NCBI GenBank assembly: GCA_007694025.1
Contig: RECL01000266.1
Span: 1-37,619 of the forward strand
DNA: 37,619 nucleotides
DNA from: Spirochaetaceae bacterium
Lineage (GTDB): Bacteria > Spirochaetota > Spirochaetia > DSM-27196 > SLST01
Direction: 5' to 3'
The notes beneath the pieces were generated by a model. The model did no database searches and had not been told where the DNA came from. It saw only the letters and a list, made by a program, of their open reading frames with translations. This document shows positions 1,870-26,162 of the stretch, piece by piece. Made by a program: the position numbers and the translations under genes. Numbering within the stretch: the first letter of the stretch is position 1; each line of letters opens with the position of its first letter.

Positions 1870-4380
1870 TTAGCCGGCTGCGACCGGCTCTTCCTGCTTC
1901 GCTTCGACGCGGCGCTTCTCACGGAAGCCGATCTTGCCGCTTCGCAACGTGACGACGATGTGACTACCCTCGCCGAATCGGGTGCGTAGCAGCTCCATCG
2001 CGAGCGGATCCTCGATCTCGCGCTGAATCGTCCGGCGAAGCGGTCGGGCGCCGAACTTCACGTCGTAGCCGACGTCGATCAGATGCTGCTTCGCCTTGCT
2101 CGTGACCTCGAGCACGATCTGCTTCTCCATCAACCTCTTCTGCACGTCCTCAAGCTCGATATCGAAGATCGACTCGACCTGGACGCGATTGAGGCTGTGA
2201 AACACGACGATCTCGTCGACGCGGTTGATGAACTCGGGACGGAAGAGTCGCTTCAGTTCGTTCATCGCGCTCGACTTGATGTCGCGGTAGTCCATGAGCC
2301 CTTCGAGCGTCTTGAACCCGACCGCCGAGTCCTGCGTGATCTCTCGCGCACCGGCGTTGCTCGTCATGATCAGAACCGTGTTGCGGAAACTCACCGTGTG
2401 GCCCAGGCTGTCCTGAAGCTGTCCTTCTTCAAGAACCTGCAGCAGGATGTTGAACACGTCGGGGTGCGCCTTTTCGATCTCATCGAACAGGACGACACTG
2501 TAGGGCTTGCGCCGGATTTTTTCGGTCAGCAAACCGCCCTCGTCGTAGCCGATGTAGCCCGGAGGTGCCCCGACGAGCCGGCTCACGTTGTGCTTCTCCA
2601 TGAAGTCCGACATGTCGATGCGAATCAGCGCGTCGTCGCTGCCGAACAGGAAGCGTGCGAGCGTCTTCGCGAGCAGTGTCTTGCCGACACCCGTCGGTCC
2701 AAGGAAGATGAACGACCCCATCGGGCGCTTCGGCGAAGAGAGTCCGGTGCGGCTGCGCCGGATCGAAGAGGAGATCGCCTCGATCGCCGGATCCTGTCCG
2801 ATCACGGTGCGGTGCAGTTCGTCCTCTATCTGGAGCAGCTTCTCGCTCTCGCTCTGCGCGATCCTTGACAACGGTATTCCGGTGATGTCTGAGAGCACGT
2901 ACTGGATGTCGTCGGAGTCGACGATGTTCTGCTCGGTCTTGAGCGTCACCTTCCACTCGCTCTTCATTTCTTCGACCTTGGTCTTCAGCTGCCGGACCTG
3001 GTCGCGAACAGCCGCTGCGCGCTCGTAGTTCTGCCCGTTGACCAGGCTGAGTTTTTCGGCGTTCAACCGCTCGATCTCCCGCTCGAGCTCGGCGAGTTCG
3101 GTAGGACGGACCGAGTTGTGGATCCGCTTGCGACTGCCGGCCTCGTCCATCAGATCGATCGCCTTGTCGGGAAGGAATCGGTCGGGCATGTAGCGCCTGG
3201 CGAGCGTCGCCGATACTTCGAGCGCACCCGGCGTGTACGAGACGTTGTGGTGCTCTTCGTAGCGCTCCTTGATCCCCTTGAGGATCTCAAGCGTCTGCTC
3301 GACCGTCGGCTCGTCGACGTAGATCGTCTGGAAGCGTCGTTCGAGCGCGGCGTCCTTTTCGACGTACTTCTTGTACTCGTTGAGCGTCGTCGCGCCGATG
3401 CACTGGATTTCGCCACGCGACAGCGCGGGCTTGAGCATGTTGCTCGCGTCGATCGCACCCTCGGCACCACCGGCGCCAATGATCGTGTGCAGCTCGTCTA
3501 TGAACAGTACGATGTTTCCGGCGGTGATGATCTCCTTCATCACGCGCTTGAGGCGCTCCTCGAACTCGCCGCGGTACTTCGTGCCGGCGATCAGCGATGC
3601 CAGGTCGAGCGTCATCACGCGCTTGCCGATCAGAACCTCCGGCGCGGTGCCGTCGACGATGCTCTGCGCGAGACCTTCGACGATCGCGGTCTTGCCTACT
3701 CCGGGCTCACCGATGAGAACCGGGTTGTTCTTGGTACGTCGCGCAAGGATCTGGATTACGCGCTGGATCTCTTTCGCGCGCCCGACAACGGGGTCGAGCT
3801 TGTCCTCGCGCGCGTACTGCGTCAGATCGCGGGAGAACTCATCGAGCGTCGGCGTCGTCTTCTTGTTCGCACCGACCGTCGTGGACGCCTTGCGCTTGGC
3901 CTGCGCGGTTCGCGTGGCTGGAGCGGTGGCGGTCGTCTGCGTCGAACCGCTGAGATCGGAGATCAGCTCGCGGAGCGTTTCCACGGTGCACCCGTGTTCC
4001 CCAAGAAACCGGGCGGTCACGCTGTCGGCTTCGCGCGAGCACGCGAGCAGAAGGTGTTCGGTGCCGATGTACTCGTGGCCCAGGTTGCGGGCCTCTTCGG
4101 CGCTGTCTTCCAGAACCTTCTTGCCGCGCGAACTAGGCGGTACGTCGCCCAGGATGAACCCGCCGCGCTTGCGTGGAATCTCCTTCTCGATGTCGATCTG
4201 CATCCGTGCGGGGTCGATCCCGGCCCGCTCGAGCGCCTTGTACCCGAGCCCACCGCCCTCCTTCAGGAGGGCAAGCATGATGTGCTCCGGAAGCAGCTGA
4301 TCGGAGTGGAAGCGCTTGGCCTCATCCTGCGCGAGTATCGTCAGAACCTTTTGAGCGCGTTGTGTCAAACCCTTGAACAT
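1870..4380 (-). CDS. clpC: ATP-dependent Clp protease ATP-binding subunit ClpC
   Basis: Start [10 protein letters not shown] at 4380 with GGGAGG SD. Double Clp-N repeat, Walker A GEPGVGKT and [11 protein letters not shown] middle domain ([10 protein letters not shown]), VGF ClpP-docking loop, GARPLRR. Confidence 0.97.
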
Positions 4381-4393
4381 AAACCCTCCCAGC

Positions 4394-5461
4394 TCAATGA
4401 GCGTGGCAGTCGGCGAGCAGCTCGCGAACGACGCTCGCACGGACCTCGTCGGTGTCTGTATCGTCCTCTCCCGATTCCGGTCGACGCGGTCCCCGACTAC
4501 CACTAATATGGCTATCCTTGCCCAGAAAAAAAAGGGTTGCCAAAAGAGCAGGAGAATAGCCGCCGAAGAGTCCGGCGACGGAAGCGAAGCGCAGGTCGCT
4601 CGCAAGGAGCGCGGTCTGCTCGCGCGAGAGCGTTTCGCTGGTCTGCAGTTCATGGTGCGCGCGTTCGGCGCGCTCGCGGATCTCATCGGCCTGCGTTGCG
4701 GCAATCTGGTCGCGCGCGCGGCGTTCGAGCGCGACGAGCCGCCGGGCGCACGCGTCGACACGCTCGACGATCGCCGATTCGTCGAGCCCGAAGGTGATCC
4801 GGTTACGAAGCACGAACAGGCCGCTACGCGGAGCAGCCATGCTCGGCATTTCGCAGCCGATACGGCCGAGTCGACCGAGAATCCGGCCGATCCGTTTCCG
4901 ACTCAGAAGCCCGGGGAGGTGCAGCACGACCGACGCACGAAGCGCGGTACCGACTTCGGCGATTCGCGACGACAGATACCCGAGGTCCATCGAAACCGCG
5001 TAGTGGAGCGACTCTTCGAGCCGGATATCCGCATCGACCACGCGCTGCACGCAGGCGGTTACCGCGCGTCCCGGCGCGGTACACAGCAGTCGCAGGTGGT
5101 CTTCTCCGCCGACCACCGCGACGAACCGCTCGTCTGACGACAGGAAGACCGAATCGGCCTGCGTACCGTCGACGATTCCTCGCTCCGCGAGCCTGATTCG
5201 ATCGCTGTCGCAGATCGATCGGTCGGTCAGCAGGGTGTACGGCTCCCCGAAAAGCTCTGTTGCGGTCGCGCGAAGCACGGTGTCGACCGTCTCAAGCGCG
5301 TCGCGATACCCGCAGGTCGGCTCGGCGTCGAGAAAAGGATACCCCGACAGGTTGCGCGCGACCTGCACCCGCGACGCGATCGCGACGTCGGAGTCGGTCG
5401 CATCGTCACAGACCCACGGTACGGCCGGCGGAAGCGGCGTACTTCGCGTAGTCACGGTCAC
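4394..5461 (-). CDS. mcsB: McsB-family ATP:guanido phosphotransferase (protein-arginine kinase homologue, degenerate motifs)
   Basis: SRVQVARN, EDHLR and GYL...VGTALRASVVLHLP motifs; lies between mcsA and clpC; GTG start overlaps the mcsA TGA. Confidence 0.85.
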   Translation of the reverse strand: MTVTTRSTPLPPAVPWVCDDATDSDVAIASRVQVARNLSGYPFLDAEPTCGYRDALETVDTVLRATATELFGEPYTLLTDRSICDSDRIRLAERGIVDGTQADSVFLSSDERFVAVVGGEDHLRLLCTAPGRAVTACVQRVVDADIRLEESLHYAVSMDLGYLSSRIAEVGTALRASVVLHLPGLLSRKRIGRILGRLGRIGCEMPSMAAPRSGLFVLRNRITFGLDESAIVERVDACARRLVALERRARDQIAATQADEIRERAERAHHELQTSETLSREQTALLASDLRFASVAGLFGGYSPALLATLFFLGKDSHISGSRGPRRPESGEDDTDTDEVRASVVRELLADCHAH

Positions 5462-5958
5462 CGCTCTCCCGGGTCGGTCAGACGATCGCGAATCCGGGCG
5501 GCGCGCTCGTAGTCTTCGTGGTCGACGGCGTCGCGCAGCTCCTCGAGTCGGGTTTCACGGTCGATCAGCAGACCGCGGTACACCTCGACACGCCGCGGCA
5601 GACGCCCGCGGTGCACGATCTGGGGCTCTCCACCCGAGTGCGCGCCGCAGCTGTGCGTCAGCAGCTCGTAGATCTGGCTCCGGTACGTGTGGTAGCAATC
5701 GGGGCAGCCGACGGCGCCTCGCTCGCGAATCTGTCGGAACGACGTGCCGCAGCTGCAGCTCGTGGCCGCCTGCGTCGCGATGAGACCGCTCAGGAGCTCG
5801 CGAACGGTCGGCCCGTAGGTCGGATCTCCCGGTGTCACGCCGAGCGCCTCCGCACAACGCGCGCACAGCCACAGCTCATCGTATTCGCTTCCCCGCGTCT
5901 GGTAGGTCTGGACCCAACCGGGTCCTTCCCCACAGACGTCGCACTGCCTGCCACTCAT
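5458..5958 (-). CDS. mcsA: McsA zinc-finger/UVR-domain protein
   Basis: CDVC, CARC, CSCG and GCPDCY motifs, HRGRLP, C-terminal UVR (AVDHEDYERAARIRDRL). Start placed at ATG 5958. Confidence 0.9.
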   Translation of the reverse strand: MSGRQCDVCGEGPGWVQTYQTRGSEYDELWLCARCAEALGVTPGDPTYGPTVRELLSGLIATQAATSCSCGTSFRQIRERGAVGCPDCYHTYRSQIYELLTHSCGAHSGGEPQIVHRGRLPRRVEVYRGLLIDRETRLEELRDAVDHEDYERAARIRDRLTDPGER

Positions 5959-5965
5959 CGACTCT

Positions 5966-5974
5966 ATAGTAGCA
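5966..5974 (-). promoter_or_regulatory. Extended -10 element for mcsA-mcsB-clpC
   Basis: TG-C-TACTAT, 7 nt upstream of ATG 5958; no SD visible. Confidence 0.5.
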
Positions 5975-6029
5975 AAAAGCCGAACTCTCTGCTCGCGCTT
6001 TCCCACGGGCTCGCAGAAAAAGGGGCAGA

Positions 6030-7325
6030 TCAGCTCCCGCCGGCCGGCTCCCCCGGTTCGAGCCGCGCGACTCCGAGTCGGTCGGCGAGCACGCGTGGCA
6101 GCACGACCGATCCATCGGACTGCTGCCCCTGCTCGACAATAGCGGGCAGGATGCGGCTGGTCGCAAGACCGCTCGCGTTCAGCGAGTGAACGTACTCGAT
6201 CCGGCGATCGCCCCGTCTGAACCGGATATTGCCGCGTCGAGCCTGGTAATCAGCGGCGTTCGACGCCGAACTGACCTCTTTGTACTCGCCCATGCTCGGT
6301 ATCCAGACTTCGATGTCGTACGTCTTGGCCATCGCCGCCGAAGCGTCGCCGGCGGCAAGCCTGCTGACGCGATAGTGAAGACCAAGCCCCTGCACGAGCG
6401 CCTCTGCCTTCGCGATCAGCTCGTCGAGCGCGGTCTCTGAGGTTTCGGGCGTCGTGAACTGGAACATCTCGACCTTGTTGAACTGGTGTCCGCGGATCAT
6501 CCCGCGCTCCTGCGCGCGGTAGCTGCCGGCCTCCTTGCGATAGCACGGCGTGTAGGCGAAGTACTTGCTCGGCAGCTCGTCCTCTGAAAGGATCTCGTCG
6601 CGGTGGAAGTTGATCAGAGCGGTCTCCGCGGTCGGAAGGATGAAGTGCGTGAACGAATCGTCGTCACCGCGTAGCTGAAAGACGTCGTCCTCGAACTTCG
6701 GGAACTGGCCCGCGGTGAACCCGCACTGGTACGTGAGCAGGTGCGGGGGGAGGATGAACTCGTATCCATCGGCCAGGTGCGTATCGATGAAATAGCTCAG
6801 AAGCGCCCACTCCAGCCGCGACCCGATCCCGCGGTAGAGCCAGAAGCCGTTTCCGCCCATCTTGACGCCGCGCTCGTAGTCGACAAGGCCAAGCGACGTG
6901 ACGAGCGACACGTGATCGAGCGGTTCGAACGCAAACGACGGCTTGTCGCCCCACGTCCGGAGCACTTCGTTCGCCTCCTTGCCGCCGGCAGGGACGTCGT
7001 CGGAGGGAAGGTTCGGCAGCCGGGCAAGCTCGTCGTGTATCGCGTCGTCCAGAACCCGGATCTCGGCGTCCATCGACTTGATCGTCGCGGATACCTCCTT
7101 CATCTCGGCGAGCAGACCGTCGACGTCTTCGCCCGCCTTCTTGAGGACGGGTATATCTGCGGAGACCTGATTCCGTCGAGCCTTCAGGGCTTCGACCGAC
7201 GTTACAAACTCGCGGCGCTTTGCGTCGTTGGCAACCAGCCGGGACAGGTCGACGTGCTCCATGCGCTTGCGAAGCGCCGCTTCCACGGCTGGCCGGTTGG
7301 TTCGGATCAGGTTCAGGTCAAGCAT
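6030..7325 (-). CDS. serS: Serine--tRNA ligase
   Basis: MLDLNLIR start, N-terminal coiled arm, LPTAET, YRKEAGS, RGHQFNKVEMF, EVSSASN, LNASGLATSR. Confidence 0.97.
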   Translation of the reverse strand: MLDLNLIRTNRPAVEAALRKRMEHVDLSRLVANDAKRREFVTSVEALKARRNQVSADIPVLKKAGEDVDGLLAEMKEVSATIKSMDAEIRVLDDAIHDELARLPNLPSDDVPAGGKEANEVLRTWGDKPSFAFEPLDHVSLVTSLGLVDYERGVKMGGNGFWLYRGIGSRLEWALLSYFIDTHLADGYEFILPPHLLTYQCGFTAGQFPKFEDDVFQLRGDDDSFTHFILPTAETALINFHRDEILSEDELPSKYFAYTPCYRKEAGSYRAQERGMIRGHQFNKVEMFQFTTPETSETALDELIAKAEALVQGLGLHYRVSRLAAGDASAAMAKTYDIEVWIPSMGEYKEVSSASNAADYQARRGNIRFRRGDRRIEYVHSLNASGLATSRILPAIVEQGQQSDGSVVLPRVLADRLGVARLEPGEPAGGS

Positions 7326-14071: not shown

Positions 14072-14450
14072 CACGCTCCACCCTGTCGGCCGCGAGTACC
14101 TTCGATATCGCGCTGACGACGCGCTGCGGCGTGAACGGCTTCACGACGAAGTCGCGCGCACCGAGCTGGATCGCGCGAACGATCAGCTGCTGCTCGCCGA
14201 GCGCGCTGCACATGATCACCCGCGCGCGCGGTTCGAGCATCCTTATCTTGCGGAGCGTCGTTATCCCGTCCATCACGGGCATCGCTATGTCGAGCAGAAC
14301 CACGTCGGGTTCATGCACCAGGAAGCGGCGCAGCGCCGCACGGCCATCTTCGGCCTCCGCAACCACGTCGGCGCCGGCATCGCTCAGGATACCGCAGAGC
14401 AGTTCTCGCATGAACTGCAGGTCGTCGACGACGAGTACGCGGACCCTCAT
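14049..14450 (-). CDS. Single-domain CheY-like response regulator
   Basis: VLVVDD, LLDIAMP (phospho-Asp), MCSA, VVKPF. ATG overlaps the prfB TGA. Confidence 0.9.
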   Translation of the reverse strand: MRVRVLVVDDLQFMRELLCGILSDAGADVVAEAEDGRAALRRFLVHEPDVVLLDIAMPVMDGITTLRKIRMLEPRARVIMCSALGEQQLIVRAIQLGARDFVVKPFTPQRVVSAISKVLAADRVERDALRVPA

Positions 14451-15551
14451 GCGCTCCCGTTCCACGAGAAGCGCAGGTATTCCTCGATAAACGGATCAAG
14501 GTCACCGTCCATGACCGCCTGGACGTTGCTGGTCTCGTGCTTGGTGCGGTGGTCCTTGACCATCGTGTACGGCTGAAACACGTACGACCGAATCTGATTG
14601 CCCCAGGAGATATCCTTCTTCTCGGCAGCGTCGGCGGCGTGCTCTGCATCCTGCTTCGCGCGGTAGAACTCGTAGAGTCGGCTCTTCAGCACCTTCATCG
14701 CGGTCGCCCGGTTCTTGTGCTGACTCCGCTCGTTCTGGCACTGGACGACGATACCCGAGTCGAAGTGCGTGATCCGCACAGCGCTGTCGGTCTTGTTGAC
14801 GTGCTGACCGCCGGCGCCGCTTGCGCGGTACGTGTCCACGCGAATGTCGTCGGGCTTGATATCGACCTCGATGTCGTCATCGATTACCGGGCTCACGTAG
14901 ACCGACGCAAACGACGTGTGTCGCCGACCGCTCGAGTCGAACGGACTGATGCGAACGAGCCGATGGATACCGGTCTCGCCCTTGAGATAGCCGTACGCGT
15001 AGTCGCCGTCGAGCTGGATCGTAACGCTCTTGATCCCGCCCTCTGCCTCCTGGATGTCGAGTAGCTCGTAGCGCATCGCGTTGCGGTCGGCCCAGCGTGT
15101 GTACGCGCGATAGAGCATGCTCACCCAGTCGCACGCCTCGGTGCCGCCGGCACCCGAGTGTATCGTGAAGAACGCGTTCGACGCGTCGAATCGATCAGAC
15201 AGCAGTTCCAGGACTTCGAGCCGGTCGAAGACGCGCTGCTGCTCGGCAAGGCCATCGCGGATTTCCCGCTCCAGGTCACCACTCTTTTCGGCGATCGCAA
15301 GCTCCAGGAGTTCGGCGAGCTCGTCGGTCTCAGAGACAAGCCGCTCCCACGGTTCGAGGCGATCCTTCGTGCGCTTCAGTTGCGTCATCACCCGCTCGGC
15401 TTCCTCACGGTTATCCCAGAGGCTCGGGTCAGCGGTGCGATGTTCAAGGTCGGCGATCTCGGACTTCAACCTATCCGAGTCAAAGATGCCTCCAGGTGTC
15501 CAAAACTCGCTTTCTGAGGTCCCGAATCGGCGTGACAAGTTCTTCGAGCAT
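14447..15551 (-). CDS. prfB: Peptide chain release factor 2, +1 programmed frameshift
   Basis: ATG 15551 with GGAGG SD gives MLEELVTPIRDLRKRVLDTWRHL then CTT TGA C. The +1 frame continues DSDRLK... with GAGGTEA, RISPF and GAGGQHVN. Confidence 0.96.
15479..15493 (-). other. prfB programmed ribosomal frameshift site
   Basis: GGAGG-CAT-CTT-TGA-C: internal SD, 3-nt spacer, slippery CUU and UGA stop. Confidence 0.95.
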
Positions 15552-15571
15552 ATTGCCTCCGGTCTTCCGGG

Positions 15572-15600
15572 AGTATAGTGAATGGGGCGCGCCGAGTCAC
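15572..15600 (-). promoter_or_regulatory. Putative promoter of the prfB operon
   Basis: GTGACT (15600-15595), 17 nt, TATACT (15577-15572). Confidence 0.5.
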
Positions 15601-15616
15601 CCCGCGGGGAGTACTG

Positions 15617-15646
15617 TTGCGGGCGACCCGATGTACCGATTATTAT
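15617..15646 (+). promoter_or_regulatory. Putative promoter for the 15653 gene
   Basis: TTGCGG, 18 nt, TATTAT, then 6 nt to ATG 15653. Confidence 0.5.
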
Positions 15647-15652
15647 GAGTGA

Positions 15653-17071
15653 ATGGTGAACCGCCGGCTCTCCACGACCCGTCAACTCCTCTTTCTTGCG
15701 CTCATCGCAGCACTGACGGGCATCGTATCAGCGCAGACCTCCGGCACAGCGGATCAGAGCCGGTCGACGATGGTCGCGCGACTGCGCGTTTCTATTCGAG
15801 AGCCGCAGATACGGCTCTCATGGGTGCCCGCCGACACCGCGGGCAACACGATCGTGTACCGCTCGACCACCGAGTTCGCAGACGACTCGTTCGAGCACGC
15901 GGAAGTCGTCGGTATAGTGGCAGCGGACGTATCGTCGTTCATCGACGTACCGCCGCAGGCGGGGTCGTATCACTACGCGGTCGTCGCGACCGACGCCGAC
16001 GGAACGCCCTTCCGGTCGATTGTTCCGGGGCGCAACTCAACACTGCGTCCGGTCGAGATCGCCGGACCGCCCGAGCTCGACGGTCCGGCGCGGATCACGT
16101 CGATCGCCGCAATAGCAACGCCTGAGGGCGCGGTCACCATCGCGATCGGCGCCGACCGGACCGACCGGATGATCGCGGTGTACCGGTCGACATCGCCGAT
16201 TCGGGTCGCGACAGACCTGGCCGGGGCGTCTATGTTCCGGCGTATCGACTCGCGGCTGGGGTCGATCGACGACCTGCCGGTACCCGGGATCGGGTACTAC
16301 TACGCGGCATTCGATGCGCAAGAGGTTCTCGACGGCACCGTGACGGTACGACCCGGAGAAAACGCGACGGTTCAGTCGGTTACGATCCCTCTGCCGGAGT
16401 CGGCTCGTCCGCCGACGCCGCGACCGGCCCCGGCGCGCGTAGCCGAACCGGCGGCGCCCGATAGCGACGTTGACGCCGACGGACGGCTCGCACCCGAACC
16501 TGACGCCGCACCCGAACCTGGAGTCGCGCCCCAACCGGAGGTCGACGCCGTGCAGCCGCCGACGGTCGTGACGCGGGGTATTCCACTGCCGTTCCTGCGG
16601 CCGCAGGCGGGCTTCACGACGGGAACCGCGCTGAGCGACCCGCGGCGGTTCCTGCCGGAGCCGGTTGCGGTTAGTGTCGATACCGAGCGCGCGATCGGCC
16701 GACTGATGGAACGAAGCGTGCCGGTCACGATACCCGAGGGCCCCCCGATTCTGCGCGAAGACCGTCTGGCCGATCCACAGGGCATCGAGTACAGGTTGCG
16801 AACGATCATCGACGGCCCGATCAGGCTCTTCGCGTGGGAAGAGGCGATCGAACAGATCGACGCGCTCGCGTCGCTACCGCTGCCGTCTGATCTGCGCGCG
16901 CGGACGCATTACTATCGGGGCCGGGCGCTGCATGCGATCGGCGAGCGGCGTGAGGCTCTGCTGGAGTTCCTGGTAGCCAGGGAGTACCACTACGCGGAGT
17001 CGCAGGCATGGATCCGCGTCATTCTGGCCGAACTCGCCGGTTCGGCTACAGCTTCTCAAACCGGATTCTGA
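15653..17071 (+). CDS. Hypothetical secreted protein: two FN3-like repeats, Pro-rich linker, TPR-like tail
   Basis: Signal peptide (..GIVSA-Q); duplicated VYRST...D.P...Y.Y....PG.N.T unit; APEP-rich linker; C-terminal HYYRGRAL...EALLEFL. Confidence 0.75.
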   Translation: MVNRRLSTTRQLLFLALIAALTGIVSAQTSGTADQSRSTMVARLRVSIREPQIRLSWVPADTAGNTIVYRSTTEFADDSFEHAEVVGIVAADVSSFIDVPPQAGSYHYAVVATDADGTPFRSIVPGRNSTLRPVEIAGPPELDGPARITSIAAIATPEGAVTIAIGADRTDRMIAVYRSTSPIRVATDLAGASMFRRIDSRLGSIDDLPVPGIGYYYAAFDAQEVLDGTVTVRPGENATVQSVTIPLPESARPPTPRPAPARVAEPAAPDSDVDADGRLAPEPDAAPEPGVAPQPEVDAVQPPTVVTRGIPLPFLRPQAGFTTGTALSDPRRFLPEPVAVSVDTERAIGRLMERSVPVTIPEGPPILREDRLADPQGIEYRLRTIIDGPIRLFAWEEAIEQIDALASLPLPSDLRARTHYYRGRALHAIGERREALLEFLVAREYHYAESQAWIRVILAELAGSATASQTGF

Positions 17072-19174: not shown

Positions 19175-19765
19175 CTACTGGAGCAGGTTCGACAGGAATC
19201 CCTGGTCGAACGCCGCGAACGCGAGCGCGACGAGCCCGAGCGTGACGAACGTGATCGGCTTTCCGCGCAGACGAGCGGGCACCCACTCGGACTCGATCTG
19301 CGCGACGATCGACGCGACGATCGTCGCGACGAGCACGAAACCCACCCCGGCCGCGACCGCGGCAGCGATGCTGTGGGCGAACCCGAGTCCGACCTCGGCG
19401 ACGATCAGAGAGACCCCGAGCACCGCGCTGTTCACTGCCACAACCATCAGGTCATCCGATACAACCGCGTATACCGACGGCAGCGCTACACGCAACCCGT
19501 GATCGATTGCCGAGACGAGTCCATAGACCGTGAAGACGTAGACGAGAGTCCGGAGAAACCAGAGGCCGAGCGGACCGAGGATCAGGCTGCCCACCAGCCA
19601 CGTCGCGGCGGTCGTCACCGGCATCAGCACCGTCATGATCGCACCGACCCGCACTATGCGCCCCAGCGAGGCCTCGCCGTCGACGATCAGGCAGAAGCCC
19701 AGGAACCGGTCGAGCACGATGTTCGACGCCAGAACGAAGGTCAATACGACAGCGATCGTGCTCAC
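19175..19765 (-). CDS. rnfA: Rnf subunit A (divergent)
   Basis: NIVLDRFLGFC, FLRTLVY, NSAVLG, VPARLRGKPITFVTLGLVALAF. Confidence 0.85.
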   Translation of the reverse strand: MSTIAVVLTFVLASNIVLDRFLGFCLIVDGEASLGRIVRVGAIMTVLMPVTTAATWLVGSLILGPLGLWFLRTLVYVFTVYGLVSAIDHGLRVALPSVYAVVSDDLMVVAVNSAVLGVSLIVAEVGLGFAHSIAAAVAAGVGFVLVATIVASIVAQIESEWVPARLRGKPITFVTLGLVALAFAAFDQGFLSNLLQ

Positions 19766-20466
19766 ATGCGCTCCAGGGACTCAGAGTCGAGCTGGGGGTC
19801 GGGACCAGGCTGGGGGTCGGGATCGGGCGCGTCGGCCGGGCGGGTCGCGCGAAGCACCCTTCGCGCATCGATCCACGCGTGAAGCGCCATGATGTATCCG
19901 ACCACAAGAAAAGCGCCGGCCGGAAGCGCGAACGCGGCGACACCGGATGGTTCGGCCGCGAATCGTATCACGCCGTCGAACGATCCGATCGCAAAGAGCG
20001 TCAGCGTGGCGCTTCCGATGATCTCGCGAACGGTGCCGATGAGGGTCAGGCCGAGCAGGAACCCTATGCCCGTCCCGACCGCATCGCGGACGATGTCACC
20101 GGCAGGCTCCCCGTCGGACCGGACGGCCGAGAACCCGCCGGTGAGGATGAGCGAGTTGATCGCAAGAAGCGGTACGTAGATGCCAAGCGCCGCGGAAAGG
20201 TCAGGAGCGTACGCCCGGACGATGAGATCGGCGATCGACACGAAACCGGCGACAACGGCAAGGACCACCGGAAAGCGGATACGCCGGTCGATCAACTCGC
20301 GCAGCAAAACAAGCGTGCCAGCGCTCAGGACCAGTACCAGCGTGAGCACGACGCCCAGGACCAGCGGGTAGATCGCGTGCGTCGCAACCGCGAGCGACGG
20401 ACACAGCCCCACCGTGAGTACGATAACGGGGTTCTCGCGGAAGACGCCGCGCGGCATGCCGGTCAA
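19762..20466 (-). CDS. rnfE: Rnf subunit E (divergent)
   Basis: ENPVIVLTVGLCPSLAV, LGIYVPLL, VREIIGS, LPAGAFLVVG. Start is TTG 20466 (GGAGG upstream) or ATG 20457. Confidence 0.87.
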   Translation of the reverse strand: MTGMPRGVFRENPVIVLTVGLCPSLAVATHAIYPLVLGVVLTLVLVLSAGTLVLLRELIDRRIRFPVVLAVVAGFVSIADLIVRAYAPDLSAALGIYVPLLAINSLILTGGFSAVRSDGEPAGDIVRDAVGTGIGFLLGLTLIGTVREIIGSATLTLFAIGSFDGVIRFAAEPSGVAAFALPAGAFLVVGYIMALHAWIDARRVLRATRPADAPDPDPQPGPDPQLDSESLERM

Positions 20467-20615
20467 CGGGCCCTCCACGCGACACGCGCAGCAGCTTCCA
20501 GTTCGGCCGTCGACTCCAGGCGCCCCGACAGCAGAAGCGCGACCAGCGAGATGATCAGCGCTACAATCACGACCACAAGGGTTACGGTACCGACCCTTTG
20601 AACGCTTTCGTTCAC
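20463..20615 (-). CDS. 50-aa single-TM peptide at the rnfG position (mini-RnfG, no FMN-binding domain)
   Basis: Below the ORF-track cutoff; read by hand. GGGAGG SD; GTG overlaps the rnfD TGA; MNESVQRVGTVTLVVVIVALIISLVALLLSGRLESTAELEAAARVAWRAR; its TGA overlaps the rnfE TTG. Confidence 0.75.
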   Translation of the reverse strand: MNESVQRVGTVTLVVVIVALIISLVALLLSGRLESTAELEAAARVAWRAR

Positions 20616-21715
20616 GGTTTCCTCCCGGCGCCGGCAATCGCACGCACACGGCCTCCGGGGTCGCGGCGACGGCGAGTCCCGAATCGGCGCGGCCGCAACC
20701 CGCGGTTCAGAAGCGGCACAACGGTGTTCATGACCAGCACCGCAAACGCTCCGCTACCGGGGTACGCACCGTAGAAGCGGAACAGAAACGTGAGCGCGCC
20801 GGCTCCCGCTCCGTAGACTAGCATCCCCGTCCGGTTGGTCGGAGCGCTGCTCAGGTCGGGGGCCAGGTAGAACATCGCGAACACCACGCCGCCGGAAAGC
20901 GTATGGAACAGCACATCGCCGGCCATGTACCCGTCGCCGAACACCAACCCGCCGAAGACGCGTGTCACGATCGCGTACGACGCGAAGTAGGCGGCGGGGA
21001 TCTCCCAACGAATAACCCGCGTCGCGACCAGCGCGATAGTGCCGATCAGAAGCAGCGCGACCGCCCCCTCACCGATCGCGCCATCGACGTACCCCAGGAA
21101 GAGGTCGACATAGCCGCCCGGCAGGTTCGCGCCCACAACGGTCAGAACGCGTGCGTTCAACCAATCGGTCACCGACGCATCGACGCTCGAAACGGGGTAA
21201 CCGACCGCGCGCAACAGACCGACGGGTCCACCGACGGGGCCGGATGCGGTCTCGAGCGCGCCGCGCACGGTGGCAAGAACGGTGGCCGACGACTCCCCAT
21301 CGACTCCGGGTCCGATCATCTGACGATTCCAGGAGTAGAACGCAAAGACAAGCCCGCCGGCGGCGGCATTCATCCAGTTTCCGCCAAGGCCACCGAAGCT
21401 CCACTTGACGACGAGCATCGCGAAAATCGCGGCGGTCGCCGGCACGTGCAGACCGACCCAGGGCGGCATCGCCATCCCGATCAGCAACCCGACAAGCACG
21501 GCGCTACCGTCGCGTAGCGTCGGTCGACGCCGGATCAGGCCGATCACGCCTTCGCTGATGACAGCGGCACCGACCGCAACCATGATGATAAACAGCGCGG
21601 GTGTCCCGTACCGGTAGACTCCCCAGCCGGCTGCCGGCAGGAGCGACAGCGCGATTGCCCACATCATGCGGCCGGTCGTTGCCCGATCGTGAAACTGCGG
21701 CGGATTCGCCGACAT
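20612..21715 (-). CDS. rnfD: Rnf subunit D
   Basis: MMWAIALSLLPA, DGSAVLVGLL, FGGLGGNWMN, DGESSAT flavinylation-like motif, GAIGE. Start is 21715 (GAGG SD) or 21730. Confidence 0.9.
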   Translation of the reverse strand: MSANPPQFHDRATTGRMMWAIALSLLPAAGWGVYRYGTPALFIIMVAVGAAVISEGVIGLIRRRPTLRDGSAVLVGLLIGMAMPPWVGLHVPATAAIFAMLVVKWSFGGLGGNWMNAAAGGLVFAFYSWNRQMIGPGVDGESSATVLATVRGALETASGPVGGPVGLLRAVGYPVSSVDASVTDWLNARVLTVVGANLPGGYVDLFLGYVDGAIGEGAVALLLIGTIALVATRVIRWEIPAAYFASYAIVTRVFGGLVFGDGYMAGDVLFHTLSGGVVFAMFYLAPDLSSAPTNRTGMLVYGAGAGALTFLFRFYGAYPGSGAFAVLVMNTVVPLLNRGLRPRRFGTRRRRDPGGRVRAIAGAGRKP

Positions 21716-21726
21716 GACCGTACCTC

Positions 21727-23034
21727 TCATCGGTTCGCCTTACCGTTGCGTAACCCGTCGACGAGCGGGATCCGCGACGGGCAGACGTACCCGCACCCGC
21801 CGCACTCGGTACAATCGAAGAGCCCGTAGTCGACCGCATCGCCCGAGCGACCGTGAGCCACCAGCTTGTAGAGCTGCGCGGGATCGAGCCCCATCGGGCA
21901 CGCCTCGGCGCACCGACCGCACCGGATGCATCCAACGATCGGCGCCGCGTTCACTTCGGCCGCGGTCAGCACAAGGACGGCCGTCGTGTACTTGAGTACG
22001 GGAGTCGTCAGGTCCGTTGTGGCGTAGCCGCGTAACGGTCCACCGATGACGATCCGGGCGACCGGGTCGGTCACGCCGCCACATTCGGCAAGCAGGCCCC
22101 CGATCGGGGTCCCGATACGCACCTTGATGTTCCCCGGCCGGGCGACGCCTCTCCCGGCCACGGTGACGACCCGCTCGTAGAGCGGCTTGCGGGTGACGAC
22201 GGCCTCCCAGATCGCGTAGAGCGTCGCGGCCGAAATCGTTACGCAGCCGACATCAATCGCGTGCCCATCAGACGGCACTTCCAGACCCGTGACCGCGCGG
22301 ATGAGCTGCCGTTCGTCACCCTGCGGGTACTTGACCGACAGCCGCACGTAGTCGCGTCGGCGACCGTCGTTGTCGTGTGCCCGCATGCGTCGCATAGCAT
22401 CCCGCTTGTCCGCGCCGATTCCGACCGCGACGCGGTCGGGTGCGAGCAGTCGCTCGACGATCTGAAGCCCCTCGAAGATCTCGGCAGGGTGCTCGACCAT
22501 CAGCCGGTGATCGGCACAGACGTACGGCTCGCTCTCTGCACCGTTGACGATCAGCCACCGGCACGAAGCAGCCGCCGTGGCGTCGATCGCCGCGTGCGTC
22601 GGCTGTGATACGCCCGACATACCAACCACGCCTGCGTCCTCTATGAGCCGAAGGAGCGTACCCGGGCGTAACGTCTTCCATTCATGCCTCGCAAGGACCT
22701 TTCCCAGGCGGTCAAAGGAACCGGCAAGGTCGATGACTGCCGCCGTGGAGATGACGCCGTCGGGAAGCGTCACGGGGCGAATCTCACGGACCAGCCCGGG
22801 AATCGGGCTGTGCACGTGAGCGCAGAGGTCGCCGACCGCCCGACCGATTCGCGTGCCCTCGCCGACCCTGTCGCCGGGAGCCACGCACAGTTCGGCGTCG
22901 GGACCGTGCGACTGCCGTAGCGGGACGATCGAGACCGCCGGAAGGATCGCGTTCCTGATCGCGCGCCGGTGCGCCGCGTGCTTGTGGTGGACCGGATAGA
23001 GACCCCCGACCGGAAAGGTTGCCGTACGCATCAT
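21727..23034 (-). CDS. rnfC: Rnf subunit C
   Basis: VHSPIPG, NGAESEPY..ADHRLM, KYPQGDE, and two ferredoxin motifs CIRCGRCAEACP and CTECGGCGYVCP. Confidence 0.93.
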   Translation of the reverse strand: MMRTATFPVGGLYPVHHKHAAHRRAIRNAILPAVSIVPLRQSHGPDAELCVAPGDRVGEGTRIGRAVGDLCAHVHSPIPGLVREIRPVTLPDGVISTAAVIDLAGSFDRLGKVLARHEWKTLRPGTLLRLIEDAGVVGMSGVSQPTHAAIDATAAASCRWLIVNGAESEPYVCADHRLMVEHPAEIFEGLQIVERLLAPDRVAVGIGADKRDAMRRMRAHDNDGRRRDYVRLSVKYPQGDERQLIRAVTGLEVPSDGHAIDVGCVTISAATLYAIWEAVVTRKPLYERVVTVAGRGVARPGNIKVRIGTPIGGLLAECGGVTDPVARIVIGGPLRGYATTDLTTPVLKYTTAVLVLTAAEVNAAPIVGCIRCGRCAEACPMGLDPAQLYKLVAHGRSGDAVDYGLFDCTECGGCGYVCPSRIPLVDGLRNGKANR

Positions 23035-24548
23035 GCCACGAGCCTTCGACGGCGCAGAGCATCAAGAAGGCTCGAATGGAACCTGTATCGCAACGGTCGG
23101 ATTGGTGCGAGTATCAGGAGTGGCAGCGACGTCAGGAGAATGTACATAGCGTGAAGCACGATGTGCGGGTACCGCGAGTATAGTGCGTCGGTCGGTGTCA
23201 GAACAACCCCCACGGGTCGCCCGAACGACGCGAGCATCGAAACGATCCCGCCAGGAGCCGAGCCGATCGCGTGATCGATCCAGCTCTGATCGAACGTCGC
23301 GACGGTCTCGCGAAAGCTCGAGTACGACCCGTCCGCCTCTTCGCGAAACCGGTTCAGCGTGACCACCGTCCCGGGCGCCGGGAAAGCATACGCGTAACCG
23401 TACGCGAGTGCCTCCTGGTACGCGCGGTGCGCGATGTAGTCGGCGATGCTCGGTAACTCGAAGCGGGCATCCGACCAGAGACGCAGCAGGTCCTCATGGT
23501 CGAATCCAGCCGCGCCAGCCGCCTCGACAACGGGTCGACGGACCGGGGCATCGGGCATGAGTCGATCGACGATCGGCGGCAGTACGAGCAACAGGGTCCA
23601 CAGCGCGGGCAACCAGCGCTCGAGGCCTCCGAGACCACGGTGTGAGCGCAGGATTGACACGGGCACGAACGGCCGATGCCCGTCGTCATGGCGCCGTGCC
23701 GCAGCGATCAAATGCGCCACAGAGCGGGCAAGAACGAGCACCGCGCCGGCTCCGCTCGTACCAATCAGGTACGCAACAAGCGCGCGCCCACCCGCCACGG
23801 CGACCACGTAGACGCCCGACAGGCCGACCACCGCGGCGACCATCGCGACCGCGCGCACCGACACGAGCGCGACCACGTCGGACCTTCGGGCGCGCTCGTC
23901 CCGATCGATTCTGTGCCCGACGGCCGTCGATGCAAACGTGACGGCCGCGGCAACCGCGGCGGCGAGCGACCCGGTAGCGATCACCGGTACGAGCGGAACG
24001 GCCAGCGCGAGAACCACCACTCGGCCGCGTCCGTAGAGCACGGCGGTGCCTCCGACGACGAGCGCGAACAGTGCGACCGACAACGCGTACGGAACAGCGT
24101 ACCATTCGGCGACCCGGCTTCCCGAACCAAGCACATCGCGCACAAACCGGTTCGCGTTCCACAAGGTTCCGGGAATCCGCGCGTAGAGCGCGTTCGCGCC
24201 ATCGATCACGAAGTACAGACCAAGGGCCGTGATGAACGGATCGCGACGCGGATCGAGCGGATCGAGCCGGGTCAGCGCCGCCGGAAGCGACACCGCGTCG
24301 ACCCCGTCGAACCTGCTCACAAGCACCTTCGTCGTGTGCGGTGCGACGATGTGGTCGACTCCGGCGGCGGCCAGGAGCGCAGCGGCTTCGTCGTGACTCA
24401 GCGGCGTCACCACCGTGAGGTACGGATCGAGCGGCTGCGAGCGCCGGTACAGCGATGGAACGATAGCGACCGCGGTCACCGCGAACAGCAGGACGACCGA
24501 AGAGAGGCACACGATGAGTGTCTGGAGCGCAGGGAACCGGTCGATCAC
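23031..24548 (-). CDS. Hypothetical polytopic membrane protein coupled to rnfC
   Basis: Several hydrophobic segments flanking two soluble regions; 4-nt start/stop overlaps with both neighbours. Confidence 0.75.
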   Translation of the reverse strand: MIDRFPALQTLIVCLSSVVLLFAVTAVAIVPSLYRRSQPLDPYLTVVTPLSHDEAAALLAAAGVDHIVAPHTTKVLVSRFDGVDAVSLPAALTRLDPLDPRRDPFITALGLYFVIDGANALYARIPGTLWNANRFVRDVLGSGSRVAEWYAVPYALSVALFALVVGGTAVLYGRGRVVVLALAVPLVPVIATGSLAAAVAAAVTFASTAVGHRIDRDERARRSDVVALVSVRAVAMVAAVVGLSGVYVVAVAGGRALVAYLIGTSGAGAVLVLARSVAHLIAAARRHDDGHRPFVPVSILRSHRGLGGLERWLPALWTLLLVLPPIVDRLMPDAPVRRPVVEAAGAAGFDHEDLLRLWSDARFELPSIADYIAHRAYQEALAYGYAYAFPAPGTVVTLNRFREEADGSYSSFRETVATFDQSWIDHAIGSAPGGIVSMLASFGRPVGVVLTPTDALYSRYPHIVLHAMYILLTSLPLLILAPIRPLRYRFHSSLLDALRRRRLVA

Positions 24549-25024
24549 AACAGCGAGAACGCGAGCGCTATGAAGAAGCCCAGGATGACGCCAACTGTTA
24601 CCTCGGTGGGAGTATGGCCATTGACCTCCTTGACGGGTTCATACGCGTAGCCGGTGAGTTCGCGCATTCGTGCGCCAAGCTCATTGAGCGCGCGGGCCTG
24701 CATGCCGGCGCTCCTGCGGACACCGAGCGCATCACGGATAACGAGTACGCCATAGAAGACGCTGAGCGCGAAGATCGGCGAGTTGGTCCCGTTCGCGAAG
24801 CCGATCGACGTCGCAAGCGACGTCACCAGCGAGCTATGGCTGCTCGGCATGCCGCCGGTCTTCCAGAACATCGTCGACACGACCTCCCCGGATGTCCGTG
24901 AGCGCTGCCGCGTGATGTCGATAATCGTCTTCAGCAGCTGCGCGATGAACCAGGAGAAGAAAGCCGATAGGAACACCGGCCCCGACACCAGACCGTACAG
25001 GGCGGTGACGCGATGCGCGTCCAT
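24545..25024 (-). CDS. Divergent PAP2 family (DUF212) membrane protein
   Basis: AQLLK, TGGMPSSHSS, DALGVRRSAGMQA, KEVNGHTPTEV. Start at ATG 25024. Confidence 0.92.
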   Translation of the reverse strand: MDAHRVTALYGLVSGPVFLSAFFSWFIAQLLKTIIDITRQRSRTSGEVVSTMFWKTGGMPSSHSSLVTSLATSIGFANGTNSPIFALSVFYGVLVIRDALGVRRSAGMQARALNELGARMRELTGYAYEPVKEVNGHTPTEVTVGVILGFFIALAFSLL

Positions 25025-25031
25025 GCATCGT

Positions 25032-25060
25032 AGAGTGTCGGCACGCAATGGCTTTGTCAA
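25032..25060 (-). promoter_or_regulatory. Putative promoter of the PAP2-rnf operon
   Basis: Perfect TTGACA (25060-25055), 17 nt, weak -10 CACTCT, then 7 nt to ATG. Confidence 0.45.
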
Positions 25061-25098
25061 GCAAAGCCACCGGGTGGTGACGACGGACCCTCGGCGCG

Positions 25099-25107
25099 TG
25101 GTATGCT
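25099..25107 (+). promoter_or_regulatory. Extended -10 for the pseudouridine synthase gene
   Basis: TG-G-TATGCT, 8 nt before ATG 25116. Confidence 0.5.
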
Positions 25108-25115
25108 CAGAGGCG

Positions 25116-26162
25116 ATGCCAGACGCACCAGTAGTCCGGATTGGAGACGACGACAGCGGCCGCAGGCTCGACCGCGTACTCAGAAAGGCATTCCCGGCGG
25201 TTCCGGTCGGCAGGATCTTTCGCGCGATCCGATCGGGAGAGGTCCGAATCAATGGTCACCGCGTACCGGGCAGCCACCGGGTCGCAAGCGGCGACGAGCT
25301 GCGGATCCCCCCGGCGTTCTCCGGCGAGCAGTCGCTCACCGCCGAGCACTCCCCCTCCCCCGACCTTCCGATCGAGCAGCGCGACCGGATCGTCTTCGCG
25401 AACCACGACATCGTCGTCGTGAACAAACTCGCCGGAGAGCTCACGCACGGCGAGCAATCGCTCGAAACGCTCGTTCGGCGGTGGGCGCCTGCGCCGTCGG
25501 GGATCAGCTTCCGGATCGGCCCCGCGCATCGGCTCGACCGCAACACCAGCGGGCTGATCGTCTTCGGGATCACTCGAAGCGGTGCCGAAGAGGCTGCGGC
25601 GGTCTTTGCGAGCGGATCGGTCGTGAAACGGTACGTTGCGCTGCTCGGCGGGCGGATCGAAACGAGCGCGGTGTGGGACGAGCCGCTCGAACGCGACGGC
25701 TCGTCGATGATCACCCGGGTCCATGGGCGAGAGTACTCGCCCCAGCGAGAGTACTCGCCCCAGCGAGAGTACTCGCCCCAGCGAGAGCACTCGCGGGCGA
25801 TGGCGGTCACCCGCGTCGACCCGATCGCTACCACCGAAACGCGGACGCTCGCGATCGTGACGATCGAAACGGGCCGGACGCACCAGATCCGGGCGCACGC
25901 CGCGTACCACGGGCACGCGCTGTGCGCCGACGTCAAGTACGGCGGAACCGGATCGGGCGTGCCCGCGCGGATGGCGAACGGAAAGCCGTTTCGCCGCTAC
26001 CTGCTGCACGCGGCATCGCTGACGCTTCGTCGACCGTCGCAGATCCTTGGGTTCGACCACCTGTGGGCCCCGCCGCCTCCCGACTCGCTGCGCGCGATCG
26101 AAGCGCTCTTCGGCCGTCGCGTGCTAGAGACTCTCATCGAAACGGTGGCAGCGCACCGGTAG
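25116..26162 (+). CDS. RluA family (RluC/D-like) pseudouridine synthase with S4 domain
   Basis: RRLDRVLRK S4 domain, VNKLAG, catalytic HRLDRNTSG, TGRTHQIRAH, LHA. Confidence 0.93.
   Translation: MPDAPVVRIGDDDSGRRLDRVLRKAFPAVPVGRIFRAIRSGEVRINGHRVPGSHRVASGDELRIPPAFSGEQSLTAEHSPSPDLPIEQRDRIVFANHDIVVVNKLAGELTHGEQSLETLVRRWAPAPSGISFRIGPAHRLDRNTSGLIVFGITRSGAEEAAAVFASGSVVKRYVALLGGRIETSAVWDEPLERDGSSMITRVHGREYSPQREYSPQREYSPQREHSRAMAVTRVDPIATTETRTLAIVTIETGRTHQIRAHAAYHGHALCADVKYGGTGSGVPARMANGKPFRRYLLHAASLTLRRPSQILGFDHLWAPPPPDSLRAIEALFGRRVLETLIETVAAHR
25727..25794 (+). repeat. 18-bp in-frame tandem repeat, 3 copies plus a partial
   Basis: GCGAGAGTACTCGCCCCA x3 then GCGAGAGCACTCGC; encodes REYSPQ x3 REHS. 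Confidence 0.97.

Follow-up and report, generated by a model that had tools for sequence, protein, structure and literature searches.

A 50-codon open reading frame (ORF), in the following referred to as the mini ORF, is located between rnfD and rnfE in an Rnf-like operon of a Spirochaetaceae bacterium (assembly GCA_007694025.1). The window analysed here comprises the whole stretch of 37,619 nucleotides (nt) of contig RECL01000266.1. Considering its position, start signals and composition, the mini ORF probably is a real gene, predicted to be translated into a single-pass membrane peptide (the mini protein). The favoured reading, which is put forward tentatively, goes one step further and regards this translated product as a non-redox accessory or structural subunit of a reduced Rnf-like complex. 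The mini protein would bind to the complex and fill the place of the missing membrane anchor of RnfG (or RnfB). The mini ORF and the start signals at its two ends are the following:

20463..20615, minus strand: mini ORF, 153 nt including the stop codon, 50 amino acids (aa), GTG start, TGA stop, with an orthologue in the related locus L001

20621..20625, minus strand: GGAGG Shine-Dalgarno (SD) sequence of the mini ORF, 5 nt 5' of the GTG, within the 3' end of rnfD

20472..20476, minus strand: GGAGG SD sequence of rnfE, 5 nt 5' of the TTG start, within the 3' end of the mini ORF, kept in L001

Position and start signals of the mini ORF

An earlier note on this DNA had described an ORF of 153 nt that is preceded by a strong SD and exactly fills the gap between rnfD and rnfE. 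Both the coordinates and the junctions were confirmed, the start codon of the mini ORF overlapping the stop codon of rnfD (GTGA) and its stop codon overlapping the TTG start of rnfE (TTGA), and the same holds for the GGAGG situated 5 nt before the GTG. All five junctions in the chain unk505-rnfC-rnfD-mini-rnfE-rnfA are 4-nt overlaps (ATGA, ATGA, GTGA, TTGA and GTGA, respectively), and the mini protein would be made within this translationally chained operon. The GGAGG of the mini ORF is the strongest SD of the operon; besides the mini ORF and rnfE, the other four starts display a weaker SD or none. With 46 copies of GGAGG on the minus strand of the window, simple arithmetic gives a chance of about 0.7% for the occurrence of this motif within the 6-nt spacing range 5' of a given codon. 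From the SD of the mini ORF through its start codon, L001 is identical to the window.

The start of rnfE can be assigned to TTG 20466, which is shared by the window and L001, since the ATG at position 20457 is replaced by CTG in L001. The deposited RnfE of L001 (P0002) begins with MTGLPRGVF. Upstream of the TTG the rnfE frame stays open across the whole mini ORF up to GTG 20649 (20467..20649, minus strand), which is also the case in L001, and a gene caller searching for the longest ORF could absorb the mini ORF into a false N-terminal extension of RnfE. A longer rnfE starting at GTG 20649 (295 aa) was considered and rejected: the extension has a GC content at third codon positions (GC3) of 0.48 and a codon score of -0.646, none of 16 other RnfE sequences has a counterpart of it, and the TTG is also where the deposited L001 protein begins.

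The mini ORF could alternatively represent a mere coupling spacer, in which ribosomes cross the 147-nt gap and end on the TTG of rnfE while the sequence of the peptide is irrelevant. The 4-nt overlaps that chain the whole operon would be in line with such a role, as would the free variation of the N- and C-terminal residues of the peptide and the retention of the TTGA overlap with its weak TTG start in L001, where the nearby ATG has been lost. However, rnfE possesses its own GGAGG at ideal spacing, and in a second related locus, L002, rnfD and rnfE are coupled by a direct ATGA overlap, so that no spacer is needed. Nor would a spacer require a perfect hydrophobic helix of 24 residues which ranks at the top of 135 small ORFs and changes only synonymously. 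A role restricted to coupling is thus considered improbable.

Coding potential

As a comparison set, 135 ORFs of 40-80 aa were collected from all six frames of the window. Within this set the mini ORF shows the highest 19-residue Kyte-Doolittle maximum (mean 3.35, rank 1 of 135; runner-up 2.14). Codon usage was evaluated by a log-odds score, for which 22 genes of the window supported by family membership or by synteny served as the training set. With +0.327 per codon the mini ORF ranks second of the 135 ORFs (set mean -0.356, standard deviation 0.32), a value that corresponds to the 28th percentile of 160 windows taken from real genes and is the best of the six local frames. The GC contents at the three codon positions (0.71/0.47/0.69) are lowest at the second position, as is the pattern in the rnf genes.

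These values have to be weighed against an untranslated frame that is open by chance in a GC-rich intergenic spacer. The GC content of the window is 62-69% and spurious ORFs are abundant (102 of at least 30 aa within 9 kb); shuffled bodies of the mini ORF stay open in 21.8% of cases, and across the 153 nt two further frames, the rnfE frame and the antisense +0 frame, are open as well. The open frame alone is not beyond chance, whereas hydrophobicity, SD and codon usage together are. In addition, L001 retains both flanking 4-nt overlaps without change, and a scan of positions 20200..20900 against Rfam at E≤1 gave no family. Although the excess of synonymous changes between the window and L001 is not significant and short intergenic spacers are equally conserved between both (see below), an untranslated frame appears quite improbable.

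The expectation of the earlier note that annotation pipelines would miss the ORF holds in part. One gene caller did predict it. The deposited annotation probably lacks it, since P0001, a protein identical to the L001 copy, is listed solely from one assembly-derived source ('lgn'), whereas for the RnfE encoded on the same contig the listed sources are ncbi and ena.

Predicted structure of the mini protein

The mini protein is predicted to comprise one transmembrane helix (about residues 8-31), followed by a hydrophilic helical tail of 19 residues. AlphaFold2 models a single continuous helix extending from residue 3 to residue 49, with a mean predicted local distance difference test (pLDDT) value of 84.7. 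In combination with the Kyte-Doolittle maximum of 3.35, this agrees with the single transmembrane helix proposed earlier. The amphipathic stalk proposed along with it was not recovered: although helical, the tail shows no amphipathic character, with a hydrophobic moment of 0.163 compared with a shuffle mean of 0.274 and with 77% of the shuffles reaching an equal or larger value.

Cysteine residues are absent from the mini protein. By eye, no flavinylated-Thr motif of the S/T-G-A-T type was found, the nearest sequence being E-S-T-A-E; the motif, which is recognised by ApbE/Ftp, was taken as defined in the available portions of PMC4436053 and PMC12052999. Scans of the 50-aa protein against Pfam and NCBIfam gave no family either, in agreement with the absence of an SGAT-type motif stated previously. 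Lys and Arg residues flanking the helix number one on the N-terminal side and four on the C-terminal side. By the positive-inside rule, the mini protein of the window would thereby lean weakly to a C-in orientation, opposite to the N-in/C-out orientation of RnfG. The corresponding numbers for L001, two versus three in a count by hand, are ambiguous.

According to the legend of Fig. 2 in PMC9588780, one helix of RnfA, one of RnfE and the anchor helices of RnfG and RnfB together make up a four-helix bundle. Because the anchors pack in this way, complexes of this type have a site that a lone helix could occupy. The mini protein, encoded in the slot of RnfG, could represent such a lone helix packed on the membrane core formed by RnfA, RnfE and RnfD. 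Co-folding of RnfD, RnfE, RnfA and the mini protein, performed without controls, yielded scores of 0.25 and 0.19 compared with a mark of 0.32 and is weighed neither for nor against such packing.

Conservation in related loci

Roughly 190 related RnfD proteins were found. A scan of genome contigs gave 56 pattern matches, three of which were confirmed, representing the two loci L001 and L002. L001 is part of a Spirochaetaceae metagenome-assembled genome (MAG), contains the same operon and encodes an RnfD which is 94% identical to that of the window. Its mini ORF orthologue (7116..7265) encodes 49 aa. Neither start nor stop has changed, nor have the flanking 4-nt overlaps and the two SDs. Residues 7-39 are the same in both proteins, and within this helix core all four substitutions (4/4) are synonymous and affect third positions. 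The sole indel comprises 3 nt, and the N- and C-terminal residues are variable. For comparison, rnfE of L001 differs from that of the window by 38 mismatches in 705 nt. A third close RnfE (P0003, 84% identical) starts with M-T-A-M, and any Thr codon in second position of this rnfE would keep the overlapping stop.

L002 belongs to a Spirochaetota MAG and encodes an RnfD with 49% identity. Synteny is the same (564-aa protein, rnfC, rnfD, rnfE, rnfA, GH57), but rnfD and rnfE overlap directly by ATGA (7062..7065) and no small ORF is present anywhere in the operon. Conservation of the ORF in relatives, which the earlier note had proposed to check, was not supported, the ORF being present in one of two related loci, at the rnfD-rnfE junction of L001 but not at that of L002.

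Several observations weigh against a functional subunit. Since L002 has the same operon without the mini ORF, the complex can do without it. The strong SD of rnfE means that the mini ORF is not needed to feed ribosomes to this gene, and its own signals could be inherited leftovers. Over its whole length the mini ORF shows five synonymous versus six non-synonymous changes (P=0.22 against neutrality), which are too few to decide, and the ratio of non-synonymous to synonymous rates (dN/dS) between window and L001 is 0.59 compared with 0.08-0.24 in five neighbouring genes. At 7.2%, the mini ORF has diverged no less than two true intergenic spacers, with values of 3.1% (3/98) and 0% (0/57), and because these spacers are equally little diverged, conservation does not single out the mini ORF. 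Moreover, the copies are two only, that of the window and that of L001 (to which P0001 is identical), and the mini ORF is without homologue beyond this orthologue in 1.84 billion protein representatives. A comparison with the synonymous sites of neighbouring genes (11 mismatches versus about 24 expected at a proportion of synonymous differences, pS, of 0.162; binomial P=0.001) was rejected, as the spacers are also little diverged.

Relation to RnfG and other small membrane anchors

A word-indexed search of 5.8 billion proteins with the mini protein returned P0001 only, and an exhaustive phmmer search of 1,835,955,588 representatives yielded this orthologue as the single match. With phmmer, no match was obtained among 177,635 PDB sequences at E≤10. 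The ESM Atlas gave unnamed hypothetical clusters with a best score of 0.77 and thus no lead. The earlier note had interpreted the ORF as a retained anchor of RnfG. While its location in the rnfG position stands, the ORF lying in the order rnfC-D-(G)-E-A, descent found no support, as no similarity to RnfG was detected by phmmer, in PDB chains, in Pfam or in NCBIfam.

Like the mini ORF, the genes of RnfG/NqrC (7zc6, 8ahx, 9eri) are located between rnfD and rnfE. As far as described in the available part of PMC12174285, RnfG also shares with the mini protein a single N-terminal transmembrane helix which is followed by a further helix, a generic feature that is not diagnostic. In contrast to RnfG with its about 200 aa, the mini protein of 50 aa has no room for an FMN-binding domain, lacks the flavinylated Thr motif as well as detectable similarity, and its charges lean weakly to an inverted topology. 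Among the tests of descent performed, none gave a positive result. The name mini-RnfG is justified by position and shape only, and descent from rnfG is neither shown nor assumed in the favoured reading.

The RnfB anchor likewise consists of a single transmembrane helix and is part of the four-helix bundle that also contains the RnfG anchor (PMC9588780, bundle legend). However, the RnfB gene is situated after rnfA or before rnfC and encodes ferredoxin domains, whereas the mini ORF lies between rnfD and rnfE and its product shows no similarity. Membership of the NqrM family requires conserved Cys residues. Like the mini protein, NqrM (DUF539) is a small protein of the membrane whose gene accompanies an Rnf/Nqr-type operon (PMC12174285, available part). 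Whereas NqrM is a maturation protein for the iron-sulfur site of Na+-NQR and its gene is found downstream of nqrF and apbE, the mini protein is devoid of Cys, has no Pfam match and is encoded in a lineage apparently losing its [2Fe-2S] ligands.

A functionless relic of rnfG could have arisen by an internal, roughly in-frame deletion of the FMN domain that joined the anchor helix to the final codons, with start, SD and stop overlap being kept, so that the peptide would still be translated but no longer serve the complex. The slot and the combination of transmembrane helix and following helix match the N-terminus of RnfG (PMC12174285, available part), the perfect fit on both sides would be explained by inherited signals, and selection looks relaxed, given the dN/dS of 0.59 and the variability of both ends. 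Furthermore, L002 shows that the slot can be emptied wholly, and the loss of Cys residues in RnfA and RnfE (see below) shows that the lineage is shedding parts of the G-dependent path. Such a relic is nevertheless unlikely: no similarity to RnfG/NqrC emerged, not even among PDB chains at E≤10, the helix core shows no amino-acid replacement and changes only synonymously, codon usage is still gene-like, and the distribution of Lys and Arg leans to a topology opposite to that of RnfG.

A reduced Rnf-like operon with replaced [2Fe-2S] ligands

The genes surrounding the mini ORF are the following:

23031..24548, minus strand: unk505, first gene of the chain, 505 aa, hydrophobic and predicted helical stretches, 1 Cys, no Pfam or NCBIfam family

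21727..23034, minus strand: rnfC, 435 aa, Nuo51-type FMN domain, RnfC_N, SLBB and dicluster 4Fe-4S motifs; NCBIfam rnfC 408.9 bits (cut-off 245.95)

20612..21730, minus strand: rnfD, 372 aa, Pfam PF03116 (E 1.3e-80); NCBIfam 194.8 bits, below the cut-off of 207.05

19762..20466, minus strand: rnfE, 234 aa from TTG 20466, PF02508; NCBIfam 140.1 (cut-off 213.4)

19175..19765, minus strand: rnfA, 196 aa, PF02508; NCBIfam 102.8 (cut-off 229.3)

Compared with the canonical set RnfABCDGE, the window encodes RnfC, RnfD, RnfE and RnfA, while RnfG and RnfB are not among the scanned ORFs. FMN_bind is the Pfam name for the domain that binds FMN in RnfG/NqrC. None of the families FMN_bind/RnfG, RnfB and ApbE was found in the window ORFs scanned, which comprise 53 of 83 ORFs of at least 150 aa and the complete set of 86 ORFs with 80-149 aa; the 30 larger ORFs left out lie in other frames over scanned genes. 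The absence of an FMN domain noted earlier could thus be confirmed for the scanned ORFs.

Within RnfD, Thr150 in the sequence SSAT (DGESSATVL) aligns with DGVTTATPL of 7zc6 and DTVTTATPL of 9eri and is near-invariant in 46 RnfD sequences; we take this position to be that of the Thr carrying the covalent FMN. In RnfE and RnfA, alignment with the chains of 9eri, 8ahx and 7zc6 shows that Cys22 and Cys25, respectively, are kept. The second ligand position is occupied by Ser105 in RnfE (20152..20154) and by Ser113 in RnfA (19427..19429), both of which align with the Cys of an 'NC' motif present in all three structures. Among 17 RnfE sequences this position is Cys in 14, Ser in two (window and L001) and Ala in one (P0003); of three RnfA sequences, those of the window and L001 have Ser here and that of L002 has Cys, L002 keeping all four Cys ligands. 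The Ser codons differ between RnfE (TCG) and RnfA (AGC), from which it can be concluded that the two replacements arose independently.

As described in the available parts of PMC12174285 and PMC9588780, four Cys residues, two of RnfA and two of RnfE, bind the membrane [2Fe-2S] cluster that relays electrons from RnfB to RnfG. Since an RnfG FMN domain is lacking, RnfB is not found in the cluster and one Cys of two is replaced in both RnfA and RnfE, the canonical electron path from RnfB via [2Fe-2S] and RnfG to RnfD is probably gone here. If the loss of Cys is real, the textbook electron path cannot operate in this organism.

The RnfC score is above the curated NCBIfam cut-off, and those of RnfD, RnfE and RnfA are all below. 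By these scores, the RnfD/E/A membrane core has diverged far more than RnfC, the NADH module. The 505-aa protein encoded by unk505 has syntenic homologues in L001 (93% identical) and L002 (28%, 564 aa) and may correspond to the unassigned TP0153 of Treponema pallidum. AlphaFold2 prediction from a 3-row alignment gave a mean pLDDT of 36.2, too poor for use of the fold. In the ESM Atlas no usable feature match was found for this protein, and structure comparison gave template-modelling scores of 0.19-0.24 from a poor model. Downstream of rnfA follows a gene for a GH57 glycosidase; tp0147 of T. pallidum, presumably an alpha-amylase gene, would match it.

Comparison with the noncanonical Rnf of Treponema pallidum

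Deka et al. (2015) described a "noncanonical Rnf" operon of T. pallidum, tp0153-tp0148, with TP0152 as RnfC, TP0151 as RnfD and TP0149 as putative RnfE (PMC4436053). In the available part of this report, TP0150, TP0148 and TP0153 are unassigned proteins with predicted transmembrane helices, which were tentatively placed on an rnfBCDGEA template, and tp0147 to tp0153 are reported to be co-transcribed. As stated there, none of the T. pallidum Rnf components carries an FMN motif of the NqrC/RnfG type. Candidates for the flavinylation motif are located outside the rnf operon, namely TP0572 and TP0171, the latter being a lipoprotein of the periplasm for which flavinylation by Ftp has been shown. 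These two proteins provide a precedent for the suggestion of the earlier note that the flavin shuttle might be encoded elsewhere.

By its published description, the T. pallidum operon has the same gene order as the window, with TP0150 in the slot of the mini ORF. The order unknown protein, RnfC, RnfD, small transmembrane protein, RnfE and RnfA-like protein recurs in L001, and in L002 without the small ORF. Between the mini protein and TP0150, which is known here by description only, phmmer gave no link. That a transmembrane protein occupies the G slot in a spirochaete Rnf without RnfG has already been noted in print, albeit tentatively (PMC4436053, available part). A literature search for statements on Rnf lacking RnfG found none; 'rnfCDEAB' is listed in print, without comment, for Limnochordia and a DTU015 genome. 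According to the accessible portions of PMC4436053 and PMC7512555, the noncanonical spirochaete Rnf has been proposed as an energy source for ATP synthesis and for motility of T. pallidum.

Other features of the window

On the plus strand, positions 24783..26162 contain a pseudouridine-synthase-like ORF (S4 and PseudoU_synth_2) with three tandem copies of REYSPQ followed by REHS within the region of the catalytic domain. A release-factor gene (PCRF and RF-1) is located at 14447..15685 on the minus strand. Its family match starts only at residue 73 of the longest ORF, and the part of the ORF upstream of this residue looks non-genic; a programmed frameshift is a feature of prfB. Also on the minus strand, a Clp ATPase (AAA_2, Clp_N, ClpB_D2-small), an ATP:guanido phosphotransferase (McsB-like) and a UVR-motif protein (McsA-like) are encoded together at 1870..6006. 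This Clp/McsB/McsA stress-response trio is mainly known from Firmicutes.

Implications for spirochaete Rnf complexes

A more far-reaching reading, which is speculative and rather unlikely, holds that the lineage turned Rnf into a different machine. The RnfG flavin domain and RnfB would be gone and the [2Fe-2S] site of RnfA/E would be in the course of being dismantled, and RnfD, which binds flavin, would have stayed intact along with RnfC. In that case the helix of 50 aa would represent a novelty of this lineage, a micro-subunit taking the place of the lost anchors and holding RnfA/E to RnfD, giving rise to an NADH-linked RnfC-RnfD module for which RnfA/E would provide only an ion path or a scaffold. 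If this were true, it would be a state so far undescribed among Rnf and Nqr complexes.

The noncanonical spirochaete Rnf, described in 2015, has neither an RnfG-type flavin subunit nor a recognisable RnfB. The window comes from a free-living relative with the same gene order, and the slot of rnfG is seen to hold no more than a membrane helix in one lineage and to be empty in another. In the helix-bearing lineage, Cys ligands of RnfA and RnfE are replaced, while RnfC and the flavin site of RnfD are preserved. Should the mini protein of the favoured reading be a true subunit, it would mark the structural, non-redox part of the role of RnfG.

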